NCBI GenBank assembly: GCA_903861205.1
Contig: CAIOTC010000020.1
Coordinates: 133,273 to 197,272 of the forward strand
Direction of reading: 5' to 3'
DNA length: 64,000 nucleotides
From: an uncultured bacterium
GTDB lineage: Bacteria; Patescibacteriota; Minisyncoccia; Phycocordibacterales; DATDWN01
The translations under genes were made by a program, and so were the position numbers. Under the pieces are notes generated by a model that worked only from the letters and a program-made list of their open reading frames with translations, made no database searches and was not told where the DNA came from. Shown one piece after another: positions 9,472-63,278 of the stretch; positions within the stretch are counted from its first letter, which is position 1; each line of letters begins with the position of its first letter.

Positions 9472-12417
9472 CTAAACTATCACAAAGTTCAGCAACCTAT
9501 CCTGAATATGAATTGTTTTAACAATTTTTTTGCCGGACAGCCACTTATCCACATCCGGCATTTTCTGGGCCAAAGAAACCGCCTCGTCCTGCGTTTGGCC
9601 GGCCGGAACAGTCATTTGGGCTCGCACTTTGCCGTTTATTTGGACGACAAAAGATACTTCGCTTTCTTTCATTTTTTTCGGATCGGCCTTGGGCCATTTT
9701 TGCGCCGATAGAGATTTTTTATTACCAACAACCTGCCACAATTCCTCGGCAATATGCGGAGCAAACGGAGACAGAAGCAAAATCAATTTTTCGTATTGCT
9801 CGCGAGAAACTTTTTCCGCTTTTTCGAATTCATTAACCAAAATCATCATGGCACTAATAGCCGTGTTGAAATGCATCGTCTCGATATCGTCCGTAACTTT
9901 TTGGATTGTTTTGTGGAGTAGAGTTTCTGTCGTAGCTAACGCCTTATTTTTTTCATTGGCAAGGGTGCCCCTTGCCACTTTGAATTGCAGTCGCCACACG
10001 CGTTCCAAAAAGCGTCGCGATCCGGAAATGCTGTTCGTATCCCACGCGATGGCCTGATCAAACGGACCCATAAACATTTCGTAAACGCGCAAAGTATCGG
10101 CGCCGTACATTTTGACAATATCGTCCGGATTTATGACATTTCCGCGCGATTTTGACATTTTTTCGCCATTTTCAGCCAAAATCATGCCGTGCGAGGTGCG
10201 TTTTTGGTAAGGCTCCTTTGTCGGCACGAGTTTCTGATCATACAAAAATTTGTGCCAAAATCGCGAATAAAGCAGATGCAAAGTGGTGTGTTCCATGCCG
10301 CCGTTGTACCAATCAACAGGAGTAAAATATTTTAAATTTTTTGGATCAGCAAATTTTTTGCTATTTTTTGGATCGGCGTAGCGCAGGTAGTACCACGACG
10401 AACCGGCCCAGTTTGGCATTGTGTCCGTTTCTCGCCTGGCTTTGCCGCCACATTGCGGACATTTAGTATTAACCCACGATGAAATGTCAGCCAGCGGAGA
10501 CTCGCCAGTGTCAGTCGGTTTGTAATTTTTCACCTTTGGCAAAACAAGCGGCAAATCTTTTTCCGGAATAGCGATCCAGCCGGGGTTTGCAAGCTCACCT
10601 TCTGAAAATTCTGATTTTGAATTTTTATTGGAAATTGGAAATTGGAAATTGGAAATTCGTTTTTTGCAATTTTCGCAAAAAACGGTCGGTATCGGCTCGC
10701 CCCAATATCTCTGGCGCGAAAAAATCCAATCGCGCAGTTTGAAAGTTTCCACCCATTTTCCTCCGGCGAATTCGGTGATTTTCTTTTTTACATCTTCGCT
10801 AGACAATCCATTGAATTCTCCAGAATTTATCGAAACACCTTCATCGCAAAAAGCATGAACTGGATTATTAAATCGATCGTCCCAAATAAAAAATTCCGCG
10901 CATTTCAAATTTTTGTCTGATTTCAATTCCTGCCAGCTCATCCAAGCGACTTCGTGCTTATTTTTTTCATCTTCAGTCACAATGGCTCTTTTTTCACTAG
11001 CCAACTCGAAAACTATCGTGCTGAAATGTGCCTTTCTGTTTTCATCTTTATGCTCAGCGTAAAAATGACACTCCACCGGACCGCCGAGAGTTTTGATGTA
11101 TTTCAATTCGCTGTAACCTGTCTCCTCCAAAATTTCGCGTCGAGCAGCCTCAATTACGTCTTCACCTCCCTCAACTCCGCCGGTCACAAATGTCGTCCAT
11201 GGAAATTTTTTCCAGCGCAAAGTCAAAATCTTTTTTGTTTTTGGATCGATGATGATGGCGTGAATGGCATTTCTTTCGACGGTTTTTTTGTCCGCTCTCG
11301 GAAGTTCAGTTTGGTCAGTTACTTTTGGCACAATCACTTCGCGAATCGGCAAATTGTACTTTTGGGCAAATTCAAAATCGCGATCATCATGAGCCGGCAC
11401 GGCCATGACGGCACCCGTGCCATAGTCAGCCAAAACGTAGTCGGCAATGAAAATCGGAACCAGCTCACCATTGGCCGGATTTATTACCCTGATGCCTTTC
11501 ATTTCCACGCCGGTTTTTTCTTTCTTGTCATCCATCCTGTCAATGGCCGATTTGGTCGAAACGGATTTTATATAATTTTCGACTTCTTGTCTGTTTTTCA
11601 AAAATTCCAAAAGTTTGCCGACCATTTTGTGTTCGGGAGCCAGCACTATATATGTCACCCCAAAAAGCGTATCAGGGCGCGTGGTAAAAACTTTTATTTT
11701 ATCCTTTTGGCATTGGCAGAAAAAATCAATCTCGGCGCCTTCGCTTCGGCCGATCCAATTTCTCTGCTGCGTTTTTATTTGTGGCAAATAGTCGACGAGG
11801 TCGAGATCCTTGTCCAATCTGTCGGCGTATTTGGTGATAGCCAGCATCCACTGCTCCTTTTCGCGCTTTTCCACCGGCGTGCCGCACCTCTCGCAACAGC
11901 CACCCACCACCTCCTCGTTGGCCAAACCGATTTTATCTTTCGGACACCAATTAATCGACATTTTCTTTTTGTAAGCCAAACCATTTTTGAACATCTGCAG
12001 AAAAATCCACTGCGTCCATTTGTAATATTTTGGGTCAGTCGTGTTTATTTCCCGCGACCAGTCAAAAGACATTCCCAATCCTTTAAATTGTTTTCTGAAA
12101 TTATCGGTATTCGTTTTTGTGACAATGGCTGGTTGAATCCCAGTTTTAATCGCATAATTTTCCGTCGGCAAACCGAAAGCATCCCAACCAATTGGAAAAA
12201 GAACATTAAAATCTTCCATCCTGCGTTTACGAGAGATAACATCCATTGCGGTATAACCGCGAACATGACCGGTGTGAAGTCCGTCACCGGACGGGTACGG
12301 AAATTCCATCAAAGAATAATACTTTTTGCCTTTGCTTTTGGCCTGGAAAGTTTTTTTTCTTTCCCATTCTTTTTGCCATTTTTTTTCAATAGATAGATGG
12401 TTGTACTCTTTTGGCAT
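9472..12417 (-). CDS. leuS: leucine--tRNA ligase carrying an inserted Nudix-hydrolase domain (residues approx. 378-500)
   Basis: HTGHVRGYT (HIGH), TTRPDT editing motif, KMSKS; Nudix box GGVEGGEDVIEAARREILEETGY in the insertion. Confidence 0.93.
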   Translation of the reverse strand: MPKEYNHLSIEKKWQKEWERKKTFQAKSKGKKYYSLMEFPYPSGDGLHTGHVRGYTAMDVISRKRRMEDFNVLFPIGWDAFGLPTENYAIKTGIQPAIVTKTNTDNFRKQFKGLGMSFDWSREINTTDPKYYKWTQWIFLQMFKNGLAYKKKMSINWCPKDKIGLANEEVVGGCCERCGTPVEKREKEQWMLAITKYADRLDKDLDLVDYLPQIKTQQRNWIGRSEGAEIDFFCQCQKDKIKVFTTRPDTLFGVTYIVLAPEHKMVGKLLEFLKNRQEVENYIKSVSTKSAIDRMDDKKEKTGVEMKGIRVINPANGELVPIFIADYVLADYGTGAVMAVPAHDDRDFEFAQKYNLPIREVIVPKVTDQTELPRADKKTVERNAIHAIIIDPKTKKILTLRWKKFPWTTFVTGGVEGGEDVIEAARREILEETGYSELKYIKTLGGPVECHFYAEHKDENRKAHFSTIVFELASEKRAIVTEDEKNKHEVAWMSWQELKSDKNLKCAEFFIWDDRFNNPVHAFCDEGVSINSGEFNGLSSEDVKKKITEFAGGKWVETFKLRDWIFSRQRYWGEPIPTVFCENCKKRISNFQFPISNKNSKSEFSEGELANPGWIAIPEKDLPLVLPKVKNYKPTDTGESPLADISSWVNTKCPQCGGKARRETDTMPNWAGSSWYYLRYADPKNSKKFADPKNLKYFTPVDWYNGGMEHTTLHLLYSRFWHKFLYDQKLVPTKEPYQKRTSHGMILAENGEKMSKSRGNVINPDDIVKMYGADTLRVYEMFMGPFDQAIAWDTNSISGSRRFLERVWRLQFKVARGTLANEKNKALATTETLLHKTIQKVTDDIETMHFNTAISAMMILVNEFEKAEKVSREQYEKLILLLSPFAPHIAEELWQVVGNKKSLSAQKWPKADPKKMKESEVSFVVQINGKVRAQMTVPAGQTQDEAVSLAQKMPDVDKWLSGKKIVKTIHIQDRLLNFVIV
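9957..9979 (-). repeat. in-frame palindromic mini-insert GTGGCAAGGGGCACCCTTGCCA inside leuS (encodes KVARGTLAN)
   Basis: Identical 23-24 nt shared with cysS and recR; perfect 10-bp stem with a 3-nt loop. Confidence 0.75.
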
Positions 12418-12442
12418 TACATTATTCTACACGAAAAATCAT

Positions 12443-13528: not shown

Positions 13529-14566
13529 TCAAATTCTAAACTCCACAACATCACCATCCTTGACCACATACTCCTTCCCTTCCGTTCTCACAAGCCCTTT
13601 TTCGCGGGCCTTCGCGTAGGAGCCGGCAGAGAGCAGTTTGTCCCATTCGATCACTTCGGCACGAATAAATTTGTCGCGGAAGTCGGTGTGAATGGCCATG
13701 CCAGCCACGGGCGCAGTGCTATCGCGAACAATCGTCCAAGCGCGCGACTCGTCCTCACCGGTCGTGAAATATGTCATCAGGTTCAAAGTCTCGTACGCTT
13801 TTTTGATAAGATCGTCAAAACCTTTTTCAAAAATCGGATCAACTTCGACGTACGGCCCGGGAATTCCCGCCTCGTCGGTGGGCAAATTTTCTTTCACTTC
13901 GGTCAAGTTTTTGGCCGCTGCTTCTGAAGCGTTGAGCACATACAAAATTGGCTTCATGCTCAAAAGTTGCAAAAGTTTTACGTATTCGATTTCCTTTTCG
14001 TCCAAACTAGCAAGAACTGTTCTTGCTAGTTTACTGTCCTCTAAAACTTTTTGGATTTTGGCCAGTGCCTCACCCTCTTCGACCGCTTCTTTTTTGTGAG
14101 ATTTGATATCCTTTTGCAGACCGGCGCGGCGTTTTTCCACCGTCTGCAAGTCCGCTAAAATAAGTTCAAGGTTTATGACCTCAATATCGGAGAGCGGATC
14201 GATTTTATTGTGCACGTGAATGATATCTTTGTCCTCGAAAATCCGCACCACCTCAGCGATGGCATCCACCTCACGAATATTCTGCAAAAATTTATTGCCG
14301 AGCCCCTCACCCATCGATGCGCCCTTGACCAGCCCCGCGATGTCGACAAACTCCACCACGGCCGGAATGGTTTTGGCCGACTTGCTGAACTCCGACAATT
14401 TCCACAGTCGATCGTCCGGCACCGGCACAATCCCGACCGACGGATCAATCGTGCAAAAAGGATAATTCTCCGCCGGCACGGCTTTTTTTGTCAGCGCATT
14501 AAAGAGCGTCGACTTGCCGACGTTCGGGAGGCCCACGATTCCTATACTTAGAGCGGAAGACGTCAT
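13529..14566 (-). CDS. ychF: ribosome-binding ATPase YchF (Obg-like)
   Basis: GIVGLPNVGKSTLFNALT G1 motif; TGS-like C-terminus DGDVVEFRI. Confidence 0.92.
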   Translation of the reverse strand: MTSSALSIGIVGLPNVGKSTLFNALTKKAVPAENYPFCTIDPSVGIVPVPDDRLWKLSEFSKSAKTIPAVVEFVDIAGLVKGASMGEGLGNKFLQNIREVDAIAEVVRIFEDKDIIHVHNKIDPLSDIEVINLELILADLQTVEKRRAGLQKDIKSHKKEAVEEGEALAKIQKVLEDSKLARTVLASLDEKEIEYVKLLQLLSMKPILYVLNASEAAAKNLTEVKENLPTDEAGIPGPYVEVDPIFEKGFDDLIKKAYETLNLMTYFTTGEDESRAWTIVRDSTAPVAGMAIHTDFRDKFIRAEVIEWDKLLSAGSYAKAREKGLVRTEGKEYVVKDGDVVEFRI

Positions 14567-16259
14567 TGTTTTTGTTTAAATTATCGTGTTGTGTAGCGTC
14601 CGAGCCATAGCTATATTCAGGACAGAAGAAGACATAAATTTCGCTTAGATTTATTAGACCGTACACTTGCAAGTCATTGGTGCCAGCCAGCACTTTGTTA
14701 ATAACTTGTCTAATAATGGCCTGTTTTGCTTTAAAATTCAAGCCCTTGAGTTTTTGTAATGCTTCCCCTGCAAACATTTTAACCTCGTCTTCGTTCGGTA
14801 ACAGCACATCATCCTTTGTTACGGCTTCCAAATGAGCTTTGTTTATTTGATCTTCAAATGAACGAATTTTTTCTCGCAAGGGTTTTACATATTCTTCAAA
14901 CTTCTCAAGTGTGATAACTTCCTGAGCATATGCTTTGGCAAAGCGGTCCTCTTGCGATCGCAATTTTACGATTTCTTTTTGCGTCAGATCGGTATCAATT
15001 GACATTTTGTTCAGCACATTATTTCCGCGAGTATTTTTCCATCGCTCGATTTGCTCAAGCAGCAAAGTCGGTGAACTCATAACCTCTTTCATTCTTTCCC
15101 ATACAGCCTCGTCGGCAATTCTGGCGTTGATTCCTGGTTGTTTGCATGTCGGAGGAAATGGAAATGTATGGACACGATTGGTGCATCTGTAATAGAGGTG
15201 TTTGCCTTTCTGCACACCTTCCCCTGCCCTTCTGCCACCACAGACACACCAAATCATGCCAGCCAAGAGATATTCGTTTACTTTGTTTCTGCCAAGAGTC
15301 TCAAAATTCTTTTTCAATCGCAATCCAGCCCGTATAAACAAATCTTTGTCTTCGATAATCGCAGGGACTGTTATCGGGTACCATTCAGTTTTTGGTCTCA
15401 TTTTCCTGCTAGTCTTTTTTATTTTCCTGTACTTTTCAAATTTTTTCGGATTTTCTGGAACTACCGCATATGATGCTCCCCAGTATGTCGTGCCGATAAA
15501 AACCTCGTGTCTTAACAATGTGCTGAGAGTGCTTGTACTCCAAACACCTTTAAGACTTTTTCTTGGTTTTATACCAGTTTTTTGCAACTCTCTGACAACA
15601 CCCCTGACAGTCAATCCATCATCAGCAACCATTTTAAATATATTCTTTATAACATTCGCTTCATATTCGTTGATTTCGTAATGACCGACAACATACTCTG
15701 GAGTTCCGCGTTTTCCTTTGTTTGGAATGTAGTTATAGCCGTATGGAGCTTCGCTGGTCAGGACATGGCCATTTTTAACTCTGCTAATTTTTCCTAATCG
15801 AAATCTTTCTTTGATCTTCATGCGTTCATACTCAGCAAAAACACCTCTCATTTTATACATGATGACATCCTCGTCATTTTTTGGTGGAGGTATAGTAACA
15901 AAAAGTACAGGAATCTCCAGCTCCGATAATTCTTCTATTATCAGTTCTTGCCAAGCACCTCGTCTTGCTAATCGATCTGGGTCATAGGTAAGCACGGCAT
16001 CCCAAATTCTCTTTTTTGCATCAATTCGTAACTGATCAAGATCTGGCCGATACAGTATGTCCCCGCTCCATCCCTCGTCTTTGTATGTTTTAACAATTTC
16101 AAAACCGTGTTCTTTGGCATAAGAATTTACTTCTGCTAGTTGGACCTCAATTGTCTGTTGGTCCTCCTGATTTGAGGTTGAGACCCTTGCATACAAGGCT
16201 ACGAATTTGATGTTTTTTTGTGTTAATTCAATCATGGTTTTGTTGTTATATTTTAGCAA
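14499..16259 (-). CDS. large serine recombinase / integrase (resolvase domain + recombinase domain + zinc ribbon); C-terminus overlaps the ychF 5' end by about 68 nt
   Basis: ALYARVSTSNQ catalytic Ser motif; CVCGGRR...YYRCTNR zinc ribbon; long coiled-coil C-terminus. Confidence 0.85.
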   Translation of the reverse strand: MLKYNNKTMIELTQKNIKFVALYARVSTSNQEDQQTIEVQLAEVNSYAKEHGFEIVKTYKDEGWSGDILYRPDLDQLRIDAKKRIWDAVLTYDPDRLARRGAWQELIIEELSELEIPVLFVTIPPPKNDEDVIMYKMRGVFAEYERMKIKERFRLGKISRVKNGHVLTSEAPYGYNYIPNKGKRGTPEYVVGHYEINEYEANVIKNIFKMVADDGLTVRGVVRELQKTGIKPRKSLKGVWSTSTLSTLLRHEVFIGTTYWGASYAVVPENPKKFEKYRKIKKTSRKMRPKTEWYPITVPAIIEDKDLFIRAGLRLKKNFETLGRNKVNEYLLAGMIWCVCGGRRAGEGVQKGKHLYYRCTNRVHTFPFPPTCKQPGINARIADEAVWERMKEVMSSPTLLLEQIERWKNTRGNNVLNKMSIDTDLTQKEIVKLRSQEDRFAKAYAQEVITLEKFEEYVKPLREKIRSFEDQINKAHLEAVTKDDVLLPNEDEVKMFAGEALQKLKGLNFKAKQAIIRQVINKVLAGTNDLQVYGLINLSEIYVFFCPEYSYGSDATQHDNLNKNNDVFRSKYRNRGPPERRQVDAL

Positions 16260-16559: not shown

Positions 16560-17420
16560 TTAATTTCGGTTGGACTGCCGAGTGTTCCAACTGTCAATGA
16601 ATTCGGCGATTTCGGCGTTGTCCTTCTCCCACCTCGACATCTGGTTTAGGAACAGGTCCATGTCCAGTTTTCGACGGATGGCTTCTTCCAGCCTTTCCGA
16701 TATAATGTTTGGTGGCAGGGCGTCGAGTTCGTACGCGTTTTCAAAGCCGTACCTCTCGACATACTGGCGGGTCCTCGGATCCTTCGGTTTTACTGGATTT
16801 GGCAGCAAATCGTAGTCTGTGATGTCCTCGAAGGTCAGCAGGACTCTTTGAACCTCGACTTCCACATGGAAAACTTCTTCCATCTTGGTTTTGATGTCCC
16901 GTTCAATGTCTAGCCCAGAAGGATCAAAGTCGCCCATGTAGAGAATCACACCTGGCTTGTCCTGCTCCCGTATCCGTTCGGCGGCGTCATACAGAGCCGA
17001 ACTGCTTCGGTAGCCACCGCCAGCCAGCAATGGCACATCGTATTTGTTGATAATATGGCTAATTGCAACGGCTTTTTCGCACCACACTTCCGTATAGTTC
17101 GGTTGTCCTTGCTGTAGGCTTCGTTTGTACGACTGGCCGACAGTCACGAAAAATGACTTTGGGCTTGTCCATGATGGTGTTTTCTCGGGTTGTCGCCTGA
17201 GGTCGATTATACTTTCCCAGGAGACCATTCCTCGCTCGCGAAGCCTCGAAAGCTTGCCCGAGAGGTTAGTGTAGACATTCCTGGCGTTCTTCAGTCCGAT
17301 GGAAACCAGCCGATAGTAGACTTGTCTCAATGTCAGCGGAACGTTGTATTCCGCCAGGATTTTGTTAACTTTTTCCGCCAAATCAACGTTTTTGAACGGA
17401 AATTTATATCGAATTGTCAT
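16560..17420 (-). CDS. stand-alone topoisomerase VI subunit A / Spo11-like protein ('Mini-A'-type)
   Basis: 5Y-CAP motif TLRQVYYRL; Toprim VWCEKAV and MGDFDPSGLDI (DxD). Confidence 0.65.
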   Translation of the reverse strand: MTIRYKFPFKNVDLAEKVNKILAEYNVPLTLRQVYYRLVSIGLKNARNVYTNLSGKLSRLRERGMVSWESIIDLRRQPEKTPSWTSPKSFFVTVGQSYKRSLQQGQPNYTEVWCEKAVAISHIINKYDVPLLAGGGYRSSSALYDAAERIREQDKPGVILYMGDFDPSGLDIERDIKTKMEEVFHVEVEVQRVLLTFEDITDYDLLPNPVKPKDPRTRQYVERYGFENAYELDALPPNIISERLEEAIRRKLDMDLFLNQMSRWEKDNAEIAEFIDSWNTRQSNRN

Positions 17421-45203: not shown

Positions 45204-45267
45204 AAATATATTTTATCACACCTGGATTAAAGGTATCTGACTACGTTTTCCGAGGTGTTCATTAATT

Positions 45268-46447: not shown

Positions 46448-46480
46448 GTATTTAAAATTAATAATTTATCATTGATATTT

Positions 46481-48126: not shown

Positions 48127-48166
48127 AGTTTAATTATACCATATTTACACCTCCTCTGCCACTTCG

Positions 48167-48198
48167 CGAACAGTAATTTTGTGTGGGTTGATTTTCAT
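48167..48198 (-). repeat. duplicate of the 5' end (first 12 codons) of the DUF262-HNH gene, giving a 17-codon dead-end ORF upstream of fic
   Basis: cgaacagtaattttgtgtGggttGattttcat vs cgaacagtaattttgtgtAggttAattttcat at 47541-47572. Confidence 0.7.
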
Positions 48199-48204
48199 GT
48201 TATT

Positions 48205-48720
48205 TTATTTCACAATCTTAACTAGGTCATTTTGATCTTTTACAGATTTCAAAATACCAAATAAAACATCTAAATATTTCTTAATTTCTTTATATTCATT
48301 ACCATAAATCATTCGCATTTTCCCAAAAATATAGTCATACCTGATATCTATAAAGTCTTCTATCCTTATTTCTGTATCTTTTGTAGTTTCCATTATATAT
48401 TGAGTATCACTTTTAGTAATTTTTTTAATTCCTATTTTCAACAATTCATTGTCACCCAATTATTTTTTAATATTTAATAAATTATGAGACAAACTTGTTA
48501 GCTTCTTTTTCAGATCGTTCTCATTTAAAAACGATCCCAACATAACAACTCTTGATTTCAAAAATAATTCAACATTGTAAGAAAGTAGGATATAGATTGA
48601 TCTTATAAAAGCGGGGTCTGTTTCCTGATTATCATATAGATAATCTTGAAGAAATGTTAAGCCTGTAGATGATCCTGTTGTTAGCCGAAAAGCTATTTTA
48701 TATTTTTCTTCATTACTCAT
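48205..48720 (-). pseudogene. about 170-codon AT-rich reading frame interrupted by one in-frame TAA (annotated ORFs 48460..48720 and 48205..48459)
   Basis: Both ORFs share a frame and abut with no gap; the second uses a TTG start right after the stop. Confidence 0.3.
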
Positions 48721-48724
48721 AAAA

Positions 48725-49792
48725 TTATTTTTTTACTTTCTTATTTCGTATTAAAATTCTTGCGAACGGATGTTTACCTAATACAGTTTCATCTTTACCA
48801 CCACCGTTCAAAAAACCCAACAATTTAAACTGCTCTGGATTATACTTATCAATAAAGGTTTTTGGAACTGCGATTGCCCCGTCATAATCTAATGGTATTT
48901 CTGCAACCTTTGAAACCTCAATAATATCTTGGTAGTCATACTTCGGATATTCTTTAGTTGTATATTTTTTATAAAGTATTAGTTTTTCATGACGCTTTGA
49001 AGTATCAAGATTTGTAAACCAAACTATGCTACCCATACTAAAAAACTTCGTGCCCTTTTCAATTTTTATTCTTGACTCTGTCTCAATATCATAATCATCA
49101 GGAACCTGAAACCACTTTGTGCCACCATTATCATAACCAAGCCACAACTTATTTTCTTGGATAAGTTTGAAAGTTTCTTTGTATGTGATAGCGTTCTGGC
49201 TACCTAAAATCAAAAACTTTTTATCATATTCCACCAACTGCGCGACATATTCCCGAAACAAAGAAAATGGTGGATTTGTCACCACAATGTCAGCCTGTTT
49301 TAGCAGTTCTATACTTTCTTTACTTCTAAAGTCCCCTTCACCCTCCAATGGAGTCCACTCATTATTTTTATTCGCCTTGAGTTGTTCGGCAATATCACGC
49401 AAGTCAAATGCGCCGTCGCCATCCATATCATCCACCTCACTCACAATGAATTTGTTCGCGGTTACTTTAGGACGACCTTTGGGCGTATCTAATACCTTGT
49501 CGTCGCCGAATAGTCCGAGTTGTGTGTTGGCAATGGGAGATGGTTTGTAGCTAGTAGCGATAAGTTTTTTTAATCCGAGAGCGTTGAATTTTGAAGCGAA
49601 GTATTTGAAAAAATTACTCTCAAATGGGTCATCACAGTTGCAATACACCACCTTGCCGCGAAATTGTTCTTTGTAATGTTTTAGCTCCTTTTCAATATCA
49701 ACAAGCTGGGTATAAAACTCATCTTTCTTTGCAACGTTTGCTTTGTGCAGGTTGTTATTTAATGATTTCTTTTCCATAAATTTCATGTCCAA
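48725..49792 (-). CDS. adenine-specific DNA methyltransferase (NPPF motif; EcoRI-methylase-like family), orphan
   Basis: DEFYTQL, VVTNPPFS (motif IV), DYDGAIAVPKTF. Confidence 0.6.
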   Translation of the reverse strand: MDMKFMEKKSLNNNLHKANVAKKDEFYTQLVDIEKELKHYKEQFRGKVVYCNCDDPFESNFFKYFASKFNALGLKKLIATSYKPSPIANTQLGLFGDDKVLDTPKGRPKVTANKFIVSEVDDMDGDGAFDLRDIAEQLKANKNNEWTPLEGEGDFRSKESIELLKQADIVVTNPPFSLFREYVAQLVEYDKKFLILGSQNAITYKETFKLIQENKLWLGYDNGGTKWFQVPDDYDIETESRIKIEKGTKFFSMGSIVWFTNLDTSKRHEKLILYKKYTTKEYPKYDYQDIIEVSKVAEIPLDYDGAIAVPKTFIDKYNPEQFKLLGFLNGGGKDETVLGKHPFARILIRNKKVKK

Positions 49793-49889
49793 ACTCTACC
49801 ACTTTTAACCTAATCATTCAATATGCAAATTAAAAGTTAGGGCCTTAACTTTTAATTTGGTGAGTGTCTATTAAAAGTTTTAGATCTTT

Positions 49890-49957
49890 CAGATTCACGC
49901 AGAAAGCCAAAAATCGCGTGAATTTGGGTCAAAAGTGACCCAAATTCACGCTTTTTT
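49890..49957. terminator. bidirectional terminator: perfect 16-bp palindrome gcgtgaatttgggtca-aaag-tgacccaaattcacgc with U-tracts on both sides
   Basis: TTTTTTC follows the plus-strand hairpin; GATTTTTGG follows on the minus strand, downstream of the 50010..50306 gene. Confidence 0.6.
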
Positions 49958-50009
49958 CAAAACAAAAAGCCCTCGTCCGTTCGGATTTGGGCCTAATAAA
50001 CATTTTGTT

Positions 50010-50306
50010 TTACGGTTCTGGAATAAGTTCGCAAACATCTCTTTTAAAAACAAGGTAGTGACCAAGAGTCAACTGTTTCCAAAATGCAGCGGCGGAAATT
50101 CTTTCTGCCGATTTGAGAGCTTCAATAGCCTTGCTAGTTAGAACCATGTAACCGCCCCTGTTAGCGGAACCAATGCCTAATTCGGATGGCGGATTTTTAG
50201 AAATATCCCTGTTTGTTGCAAGCGGAATTTCAATACCGACCCATTGTTCCCTTATACTCAGCGGAGCAAACCCCGGCGGGACGGCTACTATTCGAATTCG
50301 AGCCAT
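50010..50306 (-). CDS. hypothetical protein (98 aa)
   Basis: Preceded by the conserved leader AGTGGTAGAGTTCTGGGCGGAAAGGGG. Confidence 0.4.
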   Translation of the reverse strand: MARIRIVAVPPGFAPLSIREQWVGIEIPLATNRDISKNPPSELGIGSANRGGYMVLTSKAIEALKSAERISAAAFWKQLTLGHYLVFKRDVCELIPEP

Positions 50307-50315
50307 TTTCGTATT

Positions 50316-50342
50316 CCCCTTTCCGCCCAGAACTCTACCACT
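50316..50342 (-). promoter_or_regulatory. conserved 27-nt leader AGTGGTAGAGTTCTGGGCGGAAAGGGG upstream of the 50010..50306 gene
   Basis: Identical copy at 51412-51438 upstream of the next Cys-rich gene; GGAAAGGGG may act as an RBS. Confidence 0.45.
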
Positions 50343-50410
50343 CCGTCAGCACAAAATCAAGAAACATTTTCAAAAATAAAACCGCCCTGATTGATGTCAG
50401 AACGGCCGAT

Positions 50411-50866
50411 TCATTCTCTTATCTTCTTTGCCAGAACAGCTAGTTTATTGTCGTCTTCTTTTTTGTAGTCGTGTGAGGAAATATAACCTTCATATTTTTC
50501 GAAATATTTGTCCACATTTGATTTAACCGGTTTCCATTCACCCATATTTGCCGTGCCGTGCATCGGAAAAAGTTTGGCATGAATATGGTCAATCCCAAAT
50601 CCCTCAAAGATCATGCCCGTTCTTCCAACATCATCAAGTTTTGAATCAATCAGTTTTGCAACTTTTCTGGCCGCAATAACCAGATCTGCCAAAACTTGGT
50701 CTGGCAAATCAAACGCGTAACTCGGATAGTGTTCCTTGGTGATTACAACCGAAAATCCTTCGGTGTTTGGATTTCGAGAAAGAAAAGCCATATGCTTTTC
50801 ATCTTCCCAAACTTTATGACAAGGCAATTCACCTCTCACAATTTTACAAAATGTACAATTTTCCAT
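50411..50866 (-). CDS. HIT family (histidine triad) hydrolase
   Basis: CTFCKIVRGELP, HIHAKLFP histidine triad. Confidence 0.8.
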   Translation of the reverse strand: MENCTFCKIVRGELPCHKVWEDEKHMAFLSRNPNTEGFSVVITKEHYPSYAFDLPDQVLADLVIAARKVAKLIDSKLDDVGRTGMIFEGFGIDHIHAKLFPMHGTANMGEWKPVKSNVDKYFEKYEGYISSHDYKKEDDNKLAVLAKKIRE

Positions 50867-50963
50867 ACTTTTAATATACCACCTTTTCCTCCTTTTTTCA
50901 ACTACAAACAAAAAGGGCGCTGTGGGCGGCCCTTGGATTTCGCGGGTGGGGAAAATAGAAAAG

Positions 50964-51407
50964 TTAGACTCGACAAATCAAACACTCGCATGTTTTTTCT
51001 TTTTTCACCCAATCGATTATGTGCTCGATACTGACTTTGTCCCTTATTGCTCTGCTTGCGACAAAACGCAAAATAGCGATGTCTTCGCTGCTTCCCGTCA
51101 CTTGTGCAGAAACTTTTGCAGACCTTCTAAGGCGCTTCCGATCGTACTCATCTATGGAATTTTTTACCTTCTCCGCCACTTCATTCGCTCTCCTATGCTC
51201 AAACTTTACAAGCTCCTCTATGCAAAAAAGACAAGCTGTGGTTTGATCCTCAAAACCAACACACGGCACATTATGCCTTTCGCAGTACAAGCCGTTCTTT
51301 TTCGAGCAATCAACACAAGAAAACACGGCCAGACCACCATCCGGCGACCGAACCGGCACCAAAATTGCACGACTCATGTCTCCGTTATTGCAAAAATGGC
51401 AATTCAT
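50964..51407 (-). CDS. Cys-rich hypothetical protein
   Basis: CHFCNNG, CVDCSKK, CLFC, CECLIC pairs; same conserved leader upstream. Confidence 0.4.
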   Translation of the reverse strand: MNCHFCNNGDMSRAILVPVRSPDGGLAVFSCVDCSKKNGLYCERHNVPCVGFEDQTTACLFCIEELVKFEHRRANEVAEKVKNSIDEYDRKRLRRSAKVSAQVTGSSEDIAILRFVASRAIRDKVSIEHIIDWVKKEKTCECLICRV

Positions 51408-51411
51408 ACGT

Positions 51412-51438
51412 CCCCTTTCCGCCCAGAACTCTACCACT
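51412..51438 (-). promoter_or_regulatory. conserved 27-nt leader AGTGGTAGAGTTCTGGGCGGAAAGGGG upstream of the 50964..51407 gene
   Basis: Second copy, ending 4 nt before ATGAATTGC. Confidence 0.45.
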
Positions 51439-51515
51439 AACCCGACTTTCAGTCAAAAGTTTCAAACAGAAGTTTTTACCATAATTTATATTTATAATAC
51501 TGATATTCCCTTATT

Positions 51516-51539
51516 TCATTCGCCTTGGACGGCGAATGA
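51516..51539. promoter_or_regulatory. palindrome TCATTCGCC-N6-GGCGAATGA just downstream of the ArsR-family gene stop
   Basis: Copy 2. Confidence 0.4.
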
Positions 51540-51543
51540 AATT

Positions 51544-51822
51544 TTAGAAATTTGAGATAATTGCACGAGTAGTTACTGATAGGTCATCAGATATTTTATA
51601 TAACACGAAATGACCGTCGTATTGGCGATTCAAAATTCCCTTTTTTGCGAGAAATAGCAAATGTTTTGAAATAGCTTTGAATGATGCACCTGTGCCGTCT
51701 GCTATTTCGCCGACCGATCCGCTTTTCTTTTCCTTCAGAAATTTCAAAATTGTTAGCCGATGTTCATTGGCGAAAATTTCAAATATTTCTTTCAGTTCTT
51801 TAACTTCTTTAGAAATCATCAC
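51544..51822 (-). CDS. ArsR/SmtB family transcriptional regulator
   Basis: FANEHRLTILKFL...GSVGEIADGTGASFKAISKHLLFLAKKGIL wHTH. Confidence 0.8.
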   Translation of the reverse strand: MMISKEVKELKEIFEIFANEHRLTILKFLKEKKSGSVGEIADGTGASFKAISKHLLFLAKKGILNRQYDGHFVLYKISDDLSVTTRAIISNF

Positions 51823-51826
51823 ACAT

Positions 51827-51852
51827 TTAATATAACATCATTCGCCGTCTAC
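51827..51852. promoter_or_regulatory. palindrome ATCATTCGCC-N4-GGCGAATGAT immediately upstream of the ArsR-family gene start (candidate operator)
   Basis: Copy 3; 5 nt from the start codon. Confidence 0.45.
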
Positions 51853-51912
51853 GGCGAATGATGTTTGTGGGGGAAAATTGTCTGTCACTTGTCACCTGCC
51901 ATCTGCGATCTA

Positions 51913-52317
51913 CTATCTGTTCAGATATGTGACAGTTAGTTGCAGTACCGTGGCGAAAGAAACCCAGAGGAGATATGGGATTTGCATGTAGGCAATCCAC
52001 GGGATGATGGGAAAAATTGCGAATGTTGCCCAGATGAGAGTGGCAAGAACAAGCAAAACATCCGCGGCGGCGAGATAATAATTTTTGAGACCAAACAGAA
52101 AGTAAGTGAAGGAAAAGTTGAAAACAAGATTGAGAACGAACGGCAATGCTATGGTTGCCGGAATTTGATGTGCCAGAGTTTTGTAAAAAACCGCGCCGAA
52201 CGAAATGGCAATAAGACAATATAGAAACGTCCAAACCGGACCAAAGATCCACGCCGGCGGCGCCCACGACGGCTTTTTAAATTCTCTGTAAGATTCGTAC
52301 GTTTTCATTCCTTTCAC
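51913..52317 (-). CDS. tspO: TspO/MBR family tryptophan-rich sensory protein
   Basis: PSWAPPAWIFGPVWTFLY, 5 TM helices. Confidence 0.82.
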   Translation of the reverse strand: MKGMKTYESYREFKKPSWAPPAWIFGPVWTFLYCLIAISFGAVFYKTLAHQIPATIALPFVLNLVFNFSFTYFLFGLKNYYLAAADVLLVLATLIWATFAIFPIIPWIAYMQIPYLLWVSFATVLQLTVTYLNR

Positions 52318-55844: not shown

Positions 55845-55957
55845 AATATTAGGAATAATTTTTAATTTTTAATTTAGAATTTTTAATGAATTTTTAATTT
55901 TTAAGTTTTGTCATTTTAAATTCATTTTAAATTAAAAATTTTAAATTTTAAATTATT
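55845..55957. repeat. AT-rich intergenic repeat, copy 5
   Basis: Between rplI and ctpA. Confidence 0.55.
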
Positions 55958-57310
55958 TTACTTATCTAATATTTCCACCGCTTTTTCCATCTGCGTATCT
56001 TCCCCTTTCAAAAACTTTGCCTCGTCCAACTTGACCACCACGTCCGGCGTCAAACCTTGGTGTGAAATCGAAATGCCGTTCGGTGTCAGCCATTTAGCGA
56101 TGGTTACTTTGAGTGATGTGTTGTCGGTGATCGACACCAATTCCTGGACCGAACCTTTGCCGAACGATTGCTCGCCGACTAAAGTGGCCACGCCATTGTC
56201 ATGCAAAGCGCCAGCCAAAATTTCCGAAGCGCTGGCCGATCCACCGTCGATGAGCACTACCAATTTGAGTTGGTCGCTGAAAATGTTGTAACCTTTGCTG
56301 CGATAAACGGTGTTGTCGGTGTTGTTGCGGAAGTCCTCGCTGACAACCGTCTTGCCCGCCGGCAAAAACCAGCTGGCCATATCGATCGCCGCTTCCAAAT
56401 ATCCGCCGGGGTTGCCACGCAAGTCGATAATCAGTTTTGATTTGCCCGACTCGACAAACGATCGCAAAGAGTTGCGAAAAAGATCAGGAGAAATAGCGTT
56501 GAAACTGTACAAATGAATAACATACACGTCGCCAGTGTTGTCCGGACTCTTTCCGGACGCGCCAGAGTTGCTTGACAGTGCGCCTTTGGTTTCGGTGTCG
56601 ATGGTTGGCAGGTCGATAACATCGCGAACGATGGAAATTTCAAACGGATCTGCCACACCGTCGCGAACGATGAGTAGTTTGACAGTCGTGCCTTTTGGAC
56701 CACGAATCAGTTTGATGGAATCTTCGGTGGAAAGTTTAGCTGTCGGCGTTTTGTCAACCTGAACCACTTTGTCGCCCGCTTTCACTCCGGCTTTTTGGGC
56801 CGGCGAACCTTTCAGCGGAGAAATGACGGTGAGGACGTTGTCGCGAATGCCGACTTCCATGCCAACACCCTCGAAGTTACCGCTGATTTCTTCATTGAAA
56901 TTTTTGTTTTCAACGGGCGGGAAAAAAGTTGTGTAAGGATCGCCCAGAGAATCCACCATGCCGGAAATCGCGCCCCAAACGCGGGCTTGATCATCCACGT
57001 TAGTTGTGGTCGTGCTGTTTGTTGGTACATATTTTTCGTTGATCGTCTGCCAAGCTTTCCAAAACGGCGCAAAGTCAACATTGGTCACGCCATTTGCGTC
57101 TTTGTCAGTTACATTCGCTACTTTCGCTTCGGCCGGTGTGTAATCGCGTCCCAGAAAAAAACCGGAGGAAAAAATGGCAAGCACCACAACCGCGCCAACA
57201 AAATATTTCGGCTGTTTCGCCAACCCCCAAACTTTCAACGCACCATTTTTAATTTTCGCTTTTATATTCTGCATTCCGTTCATTATCGCAAAGTTTAACG
57301 AAGTGGTCAA
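55958..57310 (-). CDS. ctpA: carboxyl-terminal processing protease (S41 family)
   Basis: PDZ (GVKAGDKVVQVD), DLRGNPGGYL, LIDGGSASASEI. Confidence 0.85.
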   Translation of the reverse strand: MTTSLNFAIMNGMQNIKAKIKNGALKVWGLAKQPKYFVGAVVVLAIFSSGFFLGRDYTPAEAKVANVTDKDANGVTNVDFAPFWKAWQTINEKYVPTNSTTTTNVDDQARVWGAISGMVDSLGDPYTTFFPPVENKNFNEEISGNFEGVGMEVGIRDNVLTVISPLKGSPAQKAGVKAGDKVVQVDKTPTAKLSTEDSIKLIRGPKGTTVKLLIVRDGVADPFEISIVRDVIDLPTIDTETKGALSSNSGASGKSPDNTGDVYVIHLYSFNAISPDLFRNSLRSFVESGKSKLIIDLRGNPGGYLEAAIDMASWFLPAGKTVVSEDFRNNTDNTVYRSKGYNIFSDQLKLVVLIDGGSASASEILAGALHDNGVATLVGEQSFGKGSVQELVSITDNTSLKVTIAKWLTPNGISISHQGLTPDVVVKLDEAKFLKGEDTQMEKAVEILDK

Positions 57311-57326: not shown

Positions 57327-57444
57327 CAAAATCAGAAAGAATCACTTTTCCGTCGCCAGAATAATTTTCTGCTGAAAATTTTCTTCCTGCTCATGTCTTC
57401 ACGCATTCCGCAATGCGCCGGAAAAGTGATTCTTTCTGATTTTG
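57327..57444 (+). repeat. family-B element, copy 4
   Basis: Core about 95 % identical to copy 1; stem caaaatcagaaagaatcacttttccg/cggaaaagtgattctttctgattttg. Confidence 0.6.
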
Positions 57445-57796: not shown

Positions 57797-57950
57797 GACT
57801 ACGCCTCCACCTATAATCATACACCATGTAGTGTAAAAAAGTCAACCCGCTTAAACAAATTCCAAAGGTCTGGCCTTTGGTGCCCAATTTCCCAAGGCCA
57901 GACCTTGGGTGCGAATCCGAAATCACCACTAAGCAAATTTTGTTGAGGAA

Positions 57951-58037
57951 ATTCATTTTGGGCGCATTGCGGAGCCCGTGAAGAGGCGAGCAGGAAGAAA
58001 TTTTTCAGCAGAAAAATATTCTGGCGACCAAAATGAG
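57951..58037 (-). repeat. family-B element, copy 5 (reverse orientation; inverted relative to copy 4, about 500 bp away)
   Basis: Reverse complement is identical to the copy-1 core over about 70 nt. Confidence 0.6.
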
Positions 58038-59022: not shown

Positions 59023-59133
59023 TCGCTTCGCTCAAATTTTTAATTTAAAATTTAGAATTTAAATTGAATTTAAAATTTCTAAATTTTGAAATTGAAAATT
59101 AATTGCAAAATTTTAAATTCTAAATTTTAAATT
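59023..59133. repeat. AT-rich intergenic repeat, copy 6
   Basis: Between the CorA-like gene and cysS. Confidence 0.55.
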
Positions 59134-60564
59134 ATGTCTGAACTATATTTACACAACACCTTAACAGGAAAGAAAGATAAATTTACTCCCATCACCGATG
59201 GCTTCGTCGGCATTTATTCCTGCGGGCCGACGGTGTATTGGAACCAGCACATCGGGCACATGTACGCTTACGTTCAGTGGGATTGTTTGGTGCGTTCGCT
59301 GAATTACCTCGGTTACAAAACAAAATGGGTCATGAACTTGACCGATGTCGGACACCTGACCGGCGACAATCTCGGCGATGCCGACACCGGCGAAGACAAA
59401 ATGGAAAAAGGGGCCGAGCGAGAAGGCAAAACTGTTTGGGAAATTGCTGACAAATATATTGCGCAATTTAAAGAGAGTATGACGCTTCTCAACATCACCA
59501 CGCCTGATGTTTTGTGCCGTGCCACCGAACACATTCCCGAGCAGATCGAACTCATCAAAAAAATCGATAAAAACGGTTTTGCTTATCCGACCAAAACCGG
59601 ACTTGTTTTCGACACGCAAAAATTTCCCAGCTACGCTGATTTCGCTCATTTGAATCTGGAGGACCAGCACGCCGGCAGCCGCGTGGAAGTCGACGAAGAA
59701 AAGAAAAAGCCGTGGGATTTTTTGCTTTGGATTACCAACCAGCCGAATCACATTATGAAATGGGAATCGCCGTGGGGCGTCGGCTTTCCCGGCTGGCACA
59801 TCGAGTGCACGGCCATGTCGACCAAGTACCTCGGCGATACTTTTGATATTCACACCGGAGGCAAGGAACACATTCCAGTCCATCACACCAACGAAATCAC
59901 CCAAGCTTTTGGAGCGTTCGGACATGGAACGGCCAACTACTGGCTACACAACGAATGGATGAATATTGACGGACAAAAAATCAGCAAATCGCTCGGCAAT
60001 TCCATTTTGGTTTCGGATTTGATGGCGCGCGGATTCGATCCACTTTCCTTGCGATATTTAATAATGACCACGCACTACAAAACCGGCCTCAATTTCACTT
60101 GGGAAAGTTTGGAAGCGGCGCAGACAGCGTATTTCAAATTGCGCGATTTTGTTGCTGATTTGAAAGACGAAGTGGCAAGGGGCACCCTTGCCACAAATAC
60201 TGAAGTTTTTGAAAAAAATAAAAAAGATTTTTCGGAATGCCTCGCCGATGATTTAAACATCGCCAAAGGCATCGGGATTGTCTGGCAAATCGTCAAGTCA
60301 AAAGAAATCGACGACAAAACAAAACTGGATTTGATTTTAGATTTCGACAAAGTACTGGGACTTAAGCTAGACGAAGCAAGTTTACGACACTTAGTGTCGT
60401 ATAATGTAGAAATTCCAGCTGAGGTTGCCACACTCGTTTCCGCCCGCGACAACGCCCGCGCCGAAAAAGATTTTGCCAAAAGCGACGAGTTGCGCGCCAA
60501 AATCGAATCACTTGGATTTGAAGTAAAAGATACTCCGGAAGGAACAAGAGTTAAAAAAATATGA
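59134..60564 (+). CDS. cysS: cysteine--tRNA ligase
   Basis: [14 protein letters not shown] (HIGH), KISKSLGN (KMSKS), Zn-binding Cys. Confidence 0.93.
60171..60194 (+). repeat. in-frame palindromic mini-insert inside cysS (encodes EVARGTLAT)
   Basis: agtggcaaggggcacccttgccac. Confidence 0.75.
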
Positions 60565-61037: not shown

Positions 61038-62429
61038 ATGGTTCAGACAATCAACTCGTTTCAAATGGGAAATCCACGACTGCGAATTCCGCCGCAAAAC
61101 CTCGAGGCAGAGATGGCTTTTCTCGGCTCGGTCATGTTGCGGCCCGAAGCGCTTTACGACGTGACCGATATCGTCTCGCCGGATTCTTTTTACTCCGACA
61201 AACATCGCATCATTTTCGAAACAATGATGGAACTTTTCAGCAAGCACGCACCGATCGACATGCTTTCCGTTTCAGCCAAGCTTTCCGAAAAAGGTTGGCT
61301 CGATCAAATCGGTGGCAACACTTATTTGACCGAGTTGGTTTCCGTCGTGCCATCATCCGCCAACATCGCCTATTACGCCCAGATCATTCAGAAAAAATAT
61401 ATGATGCGCCGGTTGATCGAAGCTTCCGATCATATCAACCAAATCGGCTACGATGAAAATCAGGAACTCGAGGAGTCACTGGACCAAGCCGAGAAAAAAC
61501 TTTTCGAGGTGACCAACTTTACCACCTCGCACAAATTTACTCCGCTCAAGGACGAACTTGACGAAGCCTGGGAACGCCTCGACAGATTGCACAACGACAC
61601 AGGCGGCATGCGCGGAATTTCCACCGGTTTTGCAGAACTGGACAACAAACTTTCCGGATTTCAGAAATCGGATTTGATTATTTTGGCGGCCAGACCTTCG
61701 ATGGGAAAAACTTCGTTGGCTCTCGATATCGCTCGCCAGAGCGCGGTCAACCACAACACTTCCGTCGGTATTTTTTCGCTCGAAATGAGTTCGCAGCAGC
61801 TCGTTGACCGCATGATGGCCGCACAAGCCAACGTTGACGCTTGGAAAATGCGCACAGGAAAACTTTCCATTCAAACGGACTTCGAACCGATCCGCGAAGC
61901 GATGAATAAACTCTCGGCCGCGCCGATTTATATCGACGACCAGCCGGGAAATAATATTTTGAAAATGCGCTCCATTGCCCGCCGTTTGAAAAGCGAAAAG
62001 AGTTTGGATTTGATCATTGTCGACTACCTTCAACTAATGGTTCCGCAAACCAAAAACGACAACGTCGTTCAGCAAATTACTGAGATTTCCCACTCGCTCA
62101 AAAATCTGGCGCGCGAGTTGAACATTCCGGTGCTGGCGCTTTCCCAACTTTCTCGAGCCGTCGAACAACGCGGCGGCCGTCCTCGTCTGTCCGACTTGCG
62201 CGACTCCGGATCCATCGAGCAAGATGCCGACATCGTCATGTTTATTCATCGCGAGGATAAATATAAAGAGGAAAGCGAAAAAACAAACATCGCCGAAATT
62301 TTGATCGAGAAGCACCGCAACGGCGAGACGGGTAAAGTGGATTTGTATTTCAACGACAAAAAGGCGACGTTTCAGAGTATGGATAAAAGTAAGTATGGCG
62401 GCGCGGAGAAGGAGTTTTCGGAGTTCTAG
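61038..62429 (+). CDS. dnaB: replicative DNA helicase DnaB
   Basis: LPPQNLEAEMAFLGSVM, GARPSMGKTSLALD Walker A, RecA-like motifs. Confidence 0.92.
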   Translation: MVQTINSFQMGNPRLRIPPQNLEAEMAFLGSVMLRPEALYDVTDIVSPDSFYSDKHRIIFETMMELFSKHAPIDMLSVSAKLSEKGWLDQIGGNTYLTELVSVVPSSANIAYYAQIIQKKYMMRRLIEASDHINQIGYDENQELEESLDQAEKKLFEVTNFTTSHKFTPLKDELDEAWERLDRLHNDTGGMRGISTGFAELDNKLSGFQKSDLIILAARPSMGKTSLALDIARQSAVNHNTSVGIFSLEMSSQQLVDRMMAAQANVDAWKMRTGKLSIQTDFEPIREAMNKLSAAPIYIDDQPGNNILKMRSIARRLKSEKSLDLIIVDYLQLMVPQTKNDNVVQQITEISHSLKNLARELNIPVLALSQLSRAVEQRGGRPRLSDLRDSGSIEQDADIVMFIHREDKYKEESEKTNIAEILIEKHRNGETGKVDLYFNDKKATFQSMDKSKYGGAEKEFSEF

Positions 62430-62597: not shown

Positions 62598-62642
62598 TTT
62601 TCAAAAATTTGCTTAGTGGTTAATTTTAACTATAATCATCTC

Positions 62643-63278
62643 ATGGACAGCACCGCCAAACTTATCGAACTATTCAAAGAATTTCCGGGGATTGGGCCGA
62701 GGCAGGCTAAACGGTTTGTTTATTTTTTGCTTACGAGACCGAATGGTTATGCCAGTGAGCTTTCAAAGCTGATTGGCGAGGTTAAGTCGCATGTAGTGTG
62801 TTGCGACACATGTTTTAGATTTTTTGCCAGAAATGGAAATCCGGTGACAACATGCCCTGTCTGCCGAGATGAAAAACGAGACGGAAAAACTTTGATGATT
62901 GTTTCGCACGATGTCGATTTTGAAAATATTGAAAAAACCGGAAGTTACAACGGCTACTATTTCATTCTCGGCGGAACAGTGCCGATCCTGGAAAAAAATC
63001 CGGAAAAAAGAATCCGTCAAAAAGATTTGCTGGAATTGATTGAAAAAAAAGTGGCAAGGGGCACCCTTGCCACTGAAGGACTTTCGGAAATTATTATTGC
63101 CTTGAATTACAATCCTGAAGGCGAAAATACTCTGACTTACCTTTCGCAAATTTTGCGACCACTGGCCGAAAAACACAACATCAAAATTTCCACCCTCGGC
63201 CGCGGACTTTCTACCGGCACCGAGTTGGAATACTCCGACTCCGACACCATCAAAAACGCCCTGAAAAACCGCCAATAA
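62643..63278 (+). CDS. recR: recombination protein RecR
   Basis: HhH (FPGIGPRQAKR), C4 zinc finger CDTC...CPVC, Toprim. Confidence 0.9.
   Translation: MDSTAKLIELFKEFPGIGPRQAKRFVYFLLTRPNGYASELSKLIGEVKSHVVCCDTCFRFFARNGNPVTTCPVCRDEKRDGKTLMIVSHDVDFENIEKTGSYNGYYFILGGTVPILEKNPEKRIRQKDLLELIEKKVARGTLATEGLSEIIIALNYNPEGENTLTYLSQILRPLAEKHNIKISTLGRGLSTGTELEYSDSDTIKNALKNRQ
63050..63073 (+). repeat. in-frame palindromic mini-insert inside recR (encodes KVARGTLAT)
   Basis: agtggcaaggggcacccttgccac. Confidence 0.75.

Follow-up and report, generated by a model that had tools for sequence, protein, structure and literature searches.

A stretch of 64,000 nucleotides from an uncultured patescibacterium (contig CAIOTC010000020.1, positions 133,273 to 197,272; hereafter the window) carries near-identical copies of one short palindrome inside the coding sequences of leuS, cysS and recR. 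We consider it probable that this palindrome is a hairpin of the repetitive extragenic palindrome (REP) type, belonging to a family of REP-associated tyrosine transposases (RAYTs) of the Y1 HUH class. The hairpin family is widespread in Patescibacteria (Parcubacteria/Paceibacteria, near Zambryskibacteria). RecR of the window (P0001, on a contig of 231,850 nt) has homologues that place the window in this group, judged by the names attached to close matches. We assign the palindrome to the REP/RAYT systems because inverted hairpins flank rayt genes in other contigs and because the repeats are 23-nt palindromes with a 3-nt loop, both of which match the published definition; the GTGG head of the window copies is missing from some RAYT-flanking copies and fits it in part. 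Four observations carry this assignment: the copies are identical between unrelated genes, orthologues of the same genes differ in the presence or absence of the insert, the hairpins lie next to RAYT genes in other contigs and relatives of the source genome carry hairpin doublets.

Copies of the palindrome in the window

A pattern search of the window recovered GTGGCAAGGGGCACCCTTGCCA(C/A) three times, once each in leuS, cysS and recR, and each copy is read as VARGTLA. The exact sequence GTGGCAAGGGGCACCCTTGCCAC occurs on the plus strand at 60172-60194 and 63051-63073, and a copy with one mismatch (final base A) lies on the minus strand at 9956-9978. These type-A copies are identical at 22-23 of 23 positions and are spaced 2.9-50 kb apart. 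By contrast, dinucleotide-preserving shuffles gave an expectation of no matches (mean 0.00, maximum 0), even when up to three mismatches were allowed. The three copies and their host genes are as follows.

9956-9978, minus strand: type-A REP-like palindrome in leuS; sense sequence GTGGCAAGGGGCACCCTTGCCAA, 9-bp stem, loop GCA, read VARGTLA(N)
60172-60194, plus strand: type-A REP-like palindrome in cysS; GTGGCAAGGGGCACCCTTGCCAC, 10-bp stem, read VARGTLAT
63051-63073, plus strand: type-A REP-like palindrome in recR; 11-bp stem including flanks (63050-63074), read VARGTLAT
9472-12417, minus strand: leuS host gene; palindrome at residues 814-821, in a hypervariable loop that lies after the catalytic core and before the anticodon-binding domain
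59134-60564, plus strand: cysS host gene; palindrome at residues 347-354, in a variable loop
62643-63278, plus strand: recR host gene; 211-aa product (P0001), palindrome between a helix and a Toprim beta-strand

The host open reading frames (ORFs; 9472-12417 on the minus strand, 59134-60564 and 62616-63278 on the plus strand) were identified as LeuRS, CysRS and RecR by matches to PDB sequences (E 1e-31 to 1e-104). Each copy is in codon phase 0 and has GCA as its sense-strand loop, and all six frames of the type-A palindrome are free of stop codons. When folded in a 63-nt context, the copies formed RNA hairpins of -20 to -22 kcal/mol (z -2.5 to -4.0), so the folding check proposed in the initial annotation returned strong hairpins for all three. 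The 23-24-nt string that this annotation had reported in the three genes and its coordinates match the sequence, as do the common orientation, frame and VARGTLA peptide. Its description of a 10-bp stem with a 3-nt loop was accurate for the loop and for the cysS stem, but the recR and leuS stems have 11 bp and 9 bp, respectively.

The initial annotation had also allowed that other copies might have been missed. We found no fourth copy of the exact type-A stem anywhere in the window, to which our copy counts for all hairpin types refer. A broader hairpin scan revealed three further related perfect palindromes inside window ORFs, all of which had been overlooked:

14007-14029, minus strand: type-B palindrome CTAGCAAGAACTGTTCTTGCTAG; 11-bp stem, in-frame in ychF, read LARTVLA
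33163-33183, minus strand: type-B-like palindrome CCGCAAGAATGGTTCTTGCGG; 9-bp stem, in an acyltransferase ORF (PF01553), read PQEPFLR
39201-39227, minus strand: type-C palindrome TTTCCCAAAGGGGTCCCCTTTGGGAAA; 12-bp stem, in-frame (FPKGTPLGN) in a 138-aa ORF

The ychF palindrome CTAGCAAGAACTGTTCTTGCTAG is of the same type as an insert, TGCGCAAGAACGGTTCTTGCGCA, in the recR gene of a relative (P0035), and a near-identical variant of TTTCCCAAAGGGGTCCCCTTTGGGAAA occupies the cysS site of another relative (L086; L numbers denote related contigs and P numbers RecR orthologues). The hairpin at 33163-33183 is placed in the type-B family tentatively. All of the window hairpins are singlets, with no doublets among them. 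Scans of the window with Rfam (gathering thresholds) and for tRNAs gave no matches, which leaves the hairpins outside described RNA families. As a separate observation on one of the host proteins, LeuRS (9472-12417, minus strand; 981 aa) contains a complete NUDIX hydrolase domain (PF00293, E 2e-16), inserted directly after the editing domain, at residues 382-501.

Occupied and empty sites in orthologous genes

At the palindrome, RecR of the window is about nine residues longer than the Thermoanaerobacter RecR structure. The site reads EKK-IKN-GL, the empty form, in most of 120 RecR orthologues (70-87% identity), and the closest orthologues (P0003 and P0007) have no hairpin. In a neighbour-joining tree, occupied RecRs appeared at no fewer than five to six separate positions with empty sisters beside them, and the ancestral state of the site was empty. 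The peptides of the occupied forms are VARGTLAT (window), VSRSDLDT, VSRLTLDT, VSRVTLDT and CARTVLAQ, each encoded by a different perfect palindrome, and longer occupied forms contain doublets such as VPRMPLGENTPRGILGT. At the DNA level, the recR inserts share one codon register, NNN NCR AGR ... CTY GNN. The variants at this site are:

window recR: GTGGCAAGGGGCACCCTTGCCAC
L008 recR: GTACCGAGGATGCCCCTCGG-10 nt-CCGAGGGGCATCCTCGGTAC
L091 recR: TGCGCAAGAACGGTTCTTGCGCA
L010 recR: ATGGCAAGGATGCCCCTTGCCA then GTGTCAAGGTCGAACCTTGACAC, two different hairpin types in tandem
L086 recR: GTGTCAAGGGTGACCTTTGGC-8 nt-GCCAAGGGTCACCCTTGACAC

A further contig, L087, holds a copy of the hairpin that is decaying. 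The cleanest comparison is between P0035 (occupied) and P0082 (empty), whose genes are 92% identical at the DNA level. The empty sequence GAGAAAAAA-ATAA-AAGAT corresponds to GAGAAAAAA-TGCGCAAGAACGGTTCTTGCGC-AAGAT in the occupied gene, which means that a palindrome of about 23 nt came in and 4-5 nt went out, a net change of +18 nt. Window recR also differs by a net +18 nt from its closest empty relative, L088. There is, then, a net insertion at recR. In an AlphaFold model of RecR (mean pLDDT, predicted local distance difference test, 68), the insert is predicted to form the end of a helix and the next loop, before the Toprim strand, with pLDDT below 50 at residues 140-143.

For leuS a net insertion is likely: window LeuRS has six additional residues at the palindrome loop compared with its nearest relatives, and other LeuRS orthologues carry palindrome-like peptides at that loop, for example LARTVLA. 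The CysRS loop contains four different hairpins in four related genomes, and L085 has a cysS loop without a hairpin:

window cysS: singlet
L009 cysS: TGTCAAGG..., doublet
L084 cysS: AGAGAAGG..., doublet
L086 cysS: TTTCCCAAAGGGCTGCCCTTGGGGGAAA

The claim in the initial annotation that the palindrome is an insertion thus stands for recR (+18 nt) and probably for leuS (+6 aa), but it does not extend to cysS, in which a variable loop is occupied with no net gain. In alignments with more distant proteins, TAKGDVAA of E. coli LeuRS corresponds to VARGTLAN, and MIRSV of H. influenzae YchF to LARTVLA. Doublets in inverted orientation, resembling REPINs (paired REPs), are present in recR of L008 and L086, in cysS of L009 (two) and L084, and in the RAYT flanks of L022. 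We also observed that L009 (3308-4753) and L008 (6593-7897) encode identical RecR and different CysRS proteins. In CysRS of L009, 47 residues separate two REP doublets that are almost the same in sequence, and L008 lacks the intervening segment (481 versus 434 aa). This difference reflects either recombination between the repeats or assembly collapse.

A metagenome scan with TGGCAAGGGNNNCCCTTGCCA gave 73 loci. The same palindrome, with various loops, occurs in-frame in RecJ (VARGTLAT), Fmt, ArgRS (GKGNPCH) and TsaE, and in DprA it is read WQGVPLP in six contigs. The hairpin family is in-frame in independent assemblies (JGI, ENA and NCBI). Outside the window the palindrome is read in all three frames (for example, WQGxPLP and GKGxPCH), so the common frame in the window is not intrinsic to the element. 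The shared frame and orientation noted initially rest on three copies and count for little. In some contigs the palindrome core coincides with native-looking conserved motifs (LARAPLAKVL, LARGALAKGLL; MutY-like proteins in L024, L030 and L074 and an aldo-keto reductase-like protein in L042), which suggests that some copies lie where a peptide similar to that of the hairpin was already encoded by the host. A scan of viral contigs gave two matches, neither of them informative.

Linkage to RAYT genes and the probable origin of the hairpins

Among the related contigs, hairpins of this family lie beside transposase genes. A scan of genome contigs with the loop set to NNN gave seven matches and was useful for L007, a Kaiserbacteria contig in which a truncated ORF bearing the IS200/RAYT signature YHIYNRGN...IF...DY..FL has four related palindromes around it. 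Using tblastn, we found a full IS200-like transposase gene no more than about 130 nt from the palindrome in L083, L022, L026, L075, L029/L051 and L064, and the truncated transposase ORF of L007 is within about the same distance. In L083, the RAYT gene (726-1352, minus strand) is located between palindromes at 705-725 (loop GCA) and 1378-1398 (loop TGC), which are 1 nt beyond its stop codon and 26 nt ahead of its start codon, respectively. The loops of these two copies are opposite, showing that the flanking copies are inverted, and the downstream copy, AGTGGCAAGGGGCACCCTTGCCACT, is the same as the window recR copy at 25/25 bases. The RAYT gene of L022 has doublets on both sides, TGGCAAGGGTGCCCCTTTCCA-12 nt-TGGCAAGGG(TGC/GCA)CCCTTGCCA. 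Those of L089 and L090 are flanked by sister-type hairpins, TGTCAAAGG...CCTTTGACA, a type that relatives of the window also carry in-frame in their recR and cysS genes.

The assignment of these genes as RAYTs is consistent with their protein features. Two RAYT-like proteins matched Y1_Tnp (PF01797) with 47.1 and 35.1 bits (cut-off 23), and the sole NCBIfam match of both was REP_Tyr_transpos (NF047646; E 4e-17 and 1e-15). The HUH (NHFHLL) and YIHxNP (YIHMNP) motifs are present, and the best PDB match, although weak, was E. coli TnpA-REP (4er8). Homologues number more than 6700, many of which are named RayT (JGI) or come from Zambryskibacteria, Nomurabacteria or Parcubacteria. The RAYT gene adjoins gyrA in L083, L026, L089 and L090, which suggests that it is syntenic and vertically inherited. 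The window copies and those of L083 begin with GTGG, and this head is part of the stem. Separately, L090 contains a second, weaker Y1_Tnp ORF beside a different perfect hairpin, ACCACTTGGCGGTTTAACCGCCAAGTGGT (14615-15293, 17003-17343), and the hairpin families GACGGAAGC...GCTTCCGTC and CCCCTCCTTAG..AAGGAGGGG are common to L089 (3386-3474) and L090. The genomes of these two contigs seem to hold several hairpin/transposase pairs.

By analogy with the established model of RAYT hairpins (PMC2817692, PMC3333891, PMC8266576), the RAYT would bind the hairpin folded in single-stranded DNA and would cut and rejoin beside it, spreading the hairpin or an inverted doublet (REPIN). The three window copies would accordingly have been moved by a RAYT that the source genome presumably encodes. 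The genome in the window is compact, about 89% coding. Intragenic copies would be expected to persist only if the gene changes in length by a multiple of three overall, if no stop codon arises and if the added residues (eight) sit in a tolerated loop, and the hairpin inserts are presumably translated. The initial proposal of a selfish palindromic element inserted in-frame is supported by the presence/absence pattern among orthologues and by the hairpins flanking RAYT genes. Its alternative, a recognition site for a nuclease or recombinase, amounts to the same thing, as the hairpin flanks RAYT Y1/HUH genes in related contigs.

Several points weigh against the REP/RAYT assignment. The two RAYT-like proteins scored 62.5 and 57.8 bits against NF047646, below its equivalog cut-off of 80, and the RAYT-flanking copies of L022 and L026 begin with ATGG or CTGG and have no GTGG head. 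Within the 64-kb window, tblastn detected neither a RAYT-like ORF nor gyrA, the neighbour of RAYT elsewhere. All six window hairpins (6/6) are intragenic, in contrast to classical REPs, which are extragenic. The window CysRS loop is no longer than in relatives, and the ychF palindrome gives little or no net gain in length. The recR junctions are replacements, not clean insertions, and no target-site duplication was found at the occupied/empty recR junctions (P0035/P0082 and window/relative). This junction pattern, with replacement, a net +18 nt and no duplication, is not predicted by published RAYT reactions. Moreover, no system has yet provided an in vivo demonstration of REP transposition by a RAYT (PMC8266576).

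The repeated occupation of the same codons could have several causes: a target preference for runs of A-rich lysine codons, attraction of new REPs to old ones (L010 carries two types side by side), gene conversion that replaces one REP by another, or stringent selection. An unlikely variant of the REP/RAYT reading is that Patescibacterial REPs are repeatedly directed to the same few protein loops, instead of landing at random and then being filtered. On this view, the different variants at recR, cysS and leuS in separate lineages would all have entered in the same codon register, each with a net gain of 18 nt and without duplicating the target. If true, it would point to site-directed or conversion-type insertion, such as RAYT replacement at A-rich lysine-codon runs or pre-existing hairpins, or alternatively to a selected role for intragenic hairpins, and the pairs of occupied and empty alleles would be a natural record of REP dissemination.

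Such a selected role is also the basis of a rival explanation, in which the hairpin itself is functional in these loops and is maintained for mRNA stability or processing, as a translational pause or as a place where gyrase or a nucleoid protein binds DNA. Consistent with this idea, the recR and cysS stems differ across genomes yet are perfectly complementary in the same register, a covariation-like pattern; the RNA folds are strong; and roles of REPs in mRNA stability and gyrase binding are documented for other bacteria, as cited in PMC3733652. However, most RecR orthologues, the closest included, lack the hairpin, the empty state is ancestral and the L087 copy is decaying. Identity among unrelated genes of one genome also fits copying and not site-specific selection. 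We regard this explanation as improbable; it is compatible with a REP origin for the hairpins but is not needed.

We give slightly less credence to the proposal that the palindrome resembles an uptake signal, or is driven by conversion, and was built by substitution and biased recombination wherever its peptide was tolerated. Patescibacteria are thought to rely on DNA uptake. The small or absent net insertion in cysS and ychF, the E. coli LeuRS and H. influenzae YchF peptides that align with the hairpin-encoded ones and the replacement junctions without target duplication would all agree with such a process. However, three copies per 64 kb is far below the density of known uptake sequences (about 1 per kb), the +18-nt recR indel between 92%-identical genes is clean, with no intermediates, and this proposal has no place for the linkage of the hairpin to both flanks of RAYT genes.

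It is very improbable that the palindromes were made locally and repeatedly by template switching during replication (snap-back or quasi-palindrome correction), with no mobile element involved. Repeated hits at one site, perfect palindromes, the lack of target duplication and A-rich flanks that are prone to slippage are what such a process might leave. Nevertheless, the arms are unlike the local sequence of the empty site, 22-23 bases are identical across three unrelated genes, and the same sequence flanks RAYT genes of other organisms; the identity between genes and between contigs largely refutes this explanation. Finally, we regard as refuted the ideas that the palindrome is a motif conserved at the protein level or that it arose as an artefact of assembly or sequencing: the shared peptide is the one point in their favour, whereas the nucleotide identity spans non-homologous genes (which, as the initial annotation argued, protein-level conservation does not produce), most RecR orthologues lack the insert, different codons are used elsewhere and the family recurs in-frame in independent assemblies.

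Three other classes of element were considered and ruled out. Clustered regularly interspaced short palindromic repeats (CRISPR) would form an array, and there is none. A miniature inverted-repeat transposable element (MITE) was rejected on the lack of target duplication at the occupied/empty junctions. A spliced intervening sequence was rejected on the basis that the inserts are always a multiple of three, contain no stops and have no bulge-helix-bulge.

Other features of the window and relation to known systems

The window contains further repeats. An intergenic element of about 87 nt is present in four copies that are 85-92% identical, three direct (9364-9450, 39450-39536 and 57340-57426) and one inverted (57950-58033). 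Perfect 12-bp inverted repeats, CTTTTCCGTCGC...GCGACGGAAAAG, form its termini and a palindrome lies inside it; its appearance is that of a MITE or of a long hairpin RNA. The 3' end of leuS directly adjoins one of the copies, and a pair in inverted orientation encloses about 520 nt at 57.4-57.95 kb. A second intergenic repeat family is AT-rich, with members about 100 nt long and periodic motifs of the TTTAAAATTT type. Its members are found at 3067-3184, 33780-33883, 35136-35239, 36500-36603, 55861-55964 and 59039-59142, the last just upstream of cysS, and may represent promoters or bent DNA. At gene ends (41200-41233, 51512-51545 and 51834-51867), a hairpin of the form AAAATCATTCGCC-N4-GGCGAATGATTTT occurs three times; these copies are probably intrinsic terminators with a common stem.

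A large serine recombinase (Resolvase, Recombinase and Zn_ribbon_recom domains; 14499-16259, minus strand) adjoins ychF and is followed at 16-25 kb by many short ORFs without obvious function; this neighbourhood may be an integrated element. The stretch at 44000-52000 has a low GC content (0.38 versus 0.43-0.51), encodes a GmrSD_N+HNH endonuclease (46481-47572) and an EcoRI-type adenine methyltransferase (48725-49792), and is probably a defence island. In several close relatives (L086:2622-5219, L087:3990-6641 and the P0006 contig; 865-883 aa), dnaB contains an intein that includes a LAGLIDADG endonuclease, and DnaB of the window (61038-62429, 463 aa) has no intein.

REP/RAYT systems have been studied almost exclusively in Proteobacteria, with extragenic repeats, and we found no description of REP/RAYT hairpins or palindromes from Patescibacteria or the candidate phyla radiation in the literature searched. 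Intragenic in-frame REPs as a phenomenon have been known since 2013 (PMC3733652), but recurrence at the same site with different variants appears to be undescribed. The spread of REPs is still unresolved (PMC8266576). In this context, Patescibacteria offer a large RAYT family with cognate 23-nt hairpins that are tolerated in-frame in tRNA synthetases, RecR, RecJ, DprA and YchF, and near-identical occupied and empty alleles that give exact insertion junctions. The hairpins add 6-20 residues to conserved proteins and can lead alignments astray. Deletions or assembly collapse between copies are a further possible consequence, as exemplified by the 47-residue CysRS difference between L009 and L008.

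In the published definition, rayt is flanked by inverted REPs that have a GT(A/G)G head and are also scattered elsewhere in the genome, and group 3 comprises 23-nt perfect palindromes with a 3-nt loop. The closest parallel is with REP/REPIN elements and their RAYTs (REPtrons), above all group-3 systems such as that of Stenotrophomonas maltophilia; the GTGG head of the window copies would fit GT(A/G)G, and the features in common are the 23-nt perfect palindrome with its 3-nt loop, the hairpin on both sides of a Y1/HUH gene (inverted in L083), doublets (here in relatives), several hairpin types per genome and a syntenic transposase gene (here beside gyrA). The differences are that the hosts here are Patescibacteria and not Proteobacteria, that the window copies are all intragenic and in-frame, that the head is base-paired here and missing in some RAYT-flanking copies, and that the protein falls under the NCBIfam RAYT cut-off. 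Elements of the IS200/IS605 group, such as IS608, are similar in the Y1 HUH fold, in subterminal hairpins recognised as single strands and in the absence of target-site duplication. Unlike in these elements, the hairpins described here are dispersed without the transposase gene, and the gene looks single-copy and syntenic, not mobile.

The initial annotation had likened the palindrome to the palindromic elements of Rickettsia. This likeness holds in that essential genes of a reduced genome tolerate a selfish palindrome in-frame, one that orthologues lack, but not in size: RPE-1-type elements (Ogata et al. 2000, as cited in PMC3733652) are about 100-150 bp and add tens of residues, whereas the hairpin here is 23 nt and adds 6-8. 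We know of no transposase linked to RPE-1, whereas the hairpin here is linked to RAYT genes. Two other Rickettsia conorii elements, RPE-4 and RPE-6, have been equated with intragenic REPs, which also occur in Opitutus terrae (Di Nocera et al. 2013, PMC3733652). The intragenic REPs of that study are in-frame, often as dimers that encode 20-30 residues, in genes for replication, repair or recombination and for tRNA synthetases (PMC3733652), and the hairpins described here occupy comparable genes: RecR, LeuRS and CysRS in the window, and RecJ, DprA, ArgRS and Fmt in other contigs. They differ from those REPs in lineage and hairpin sequence, and in that different variants here share one codon position in separate lineages.

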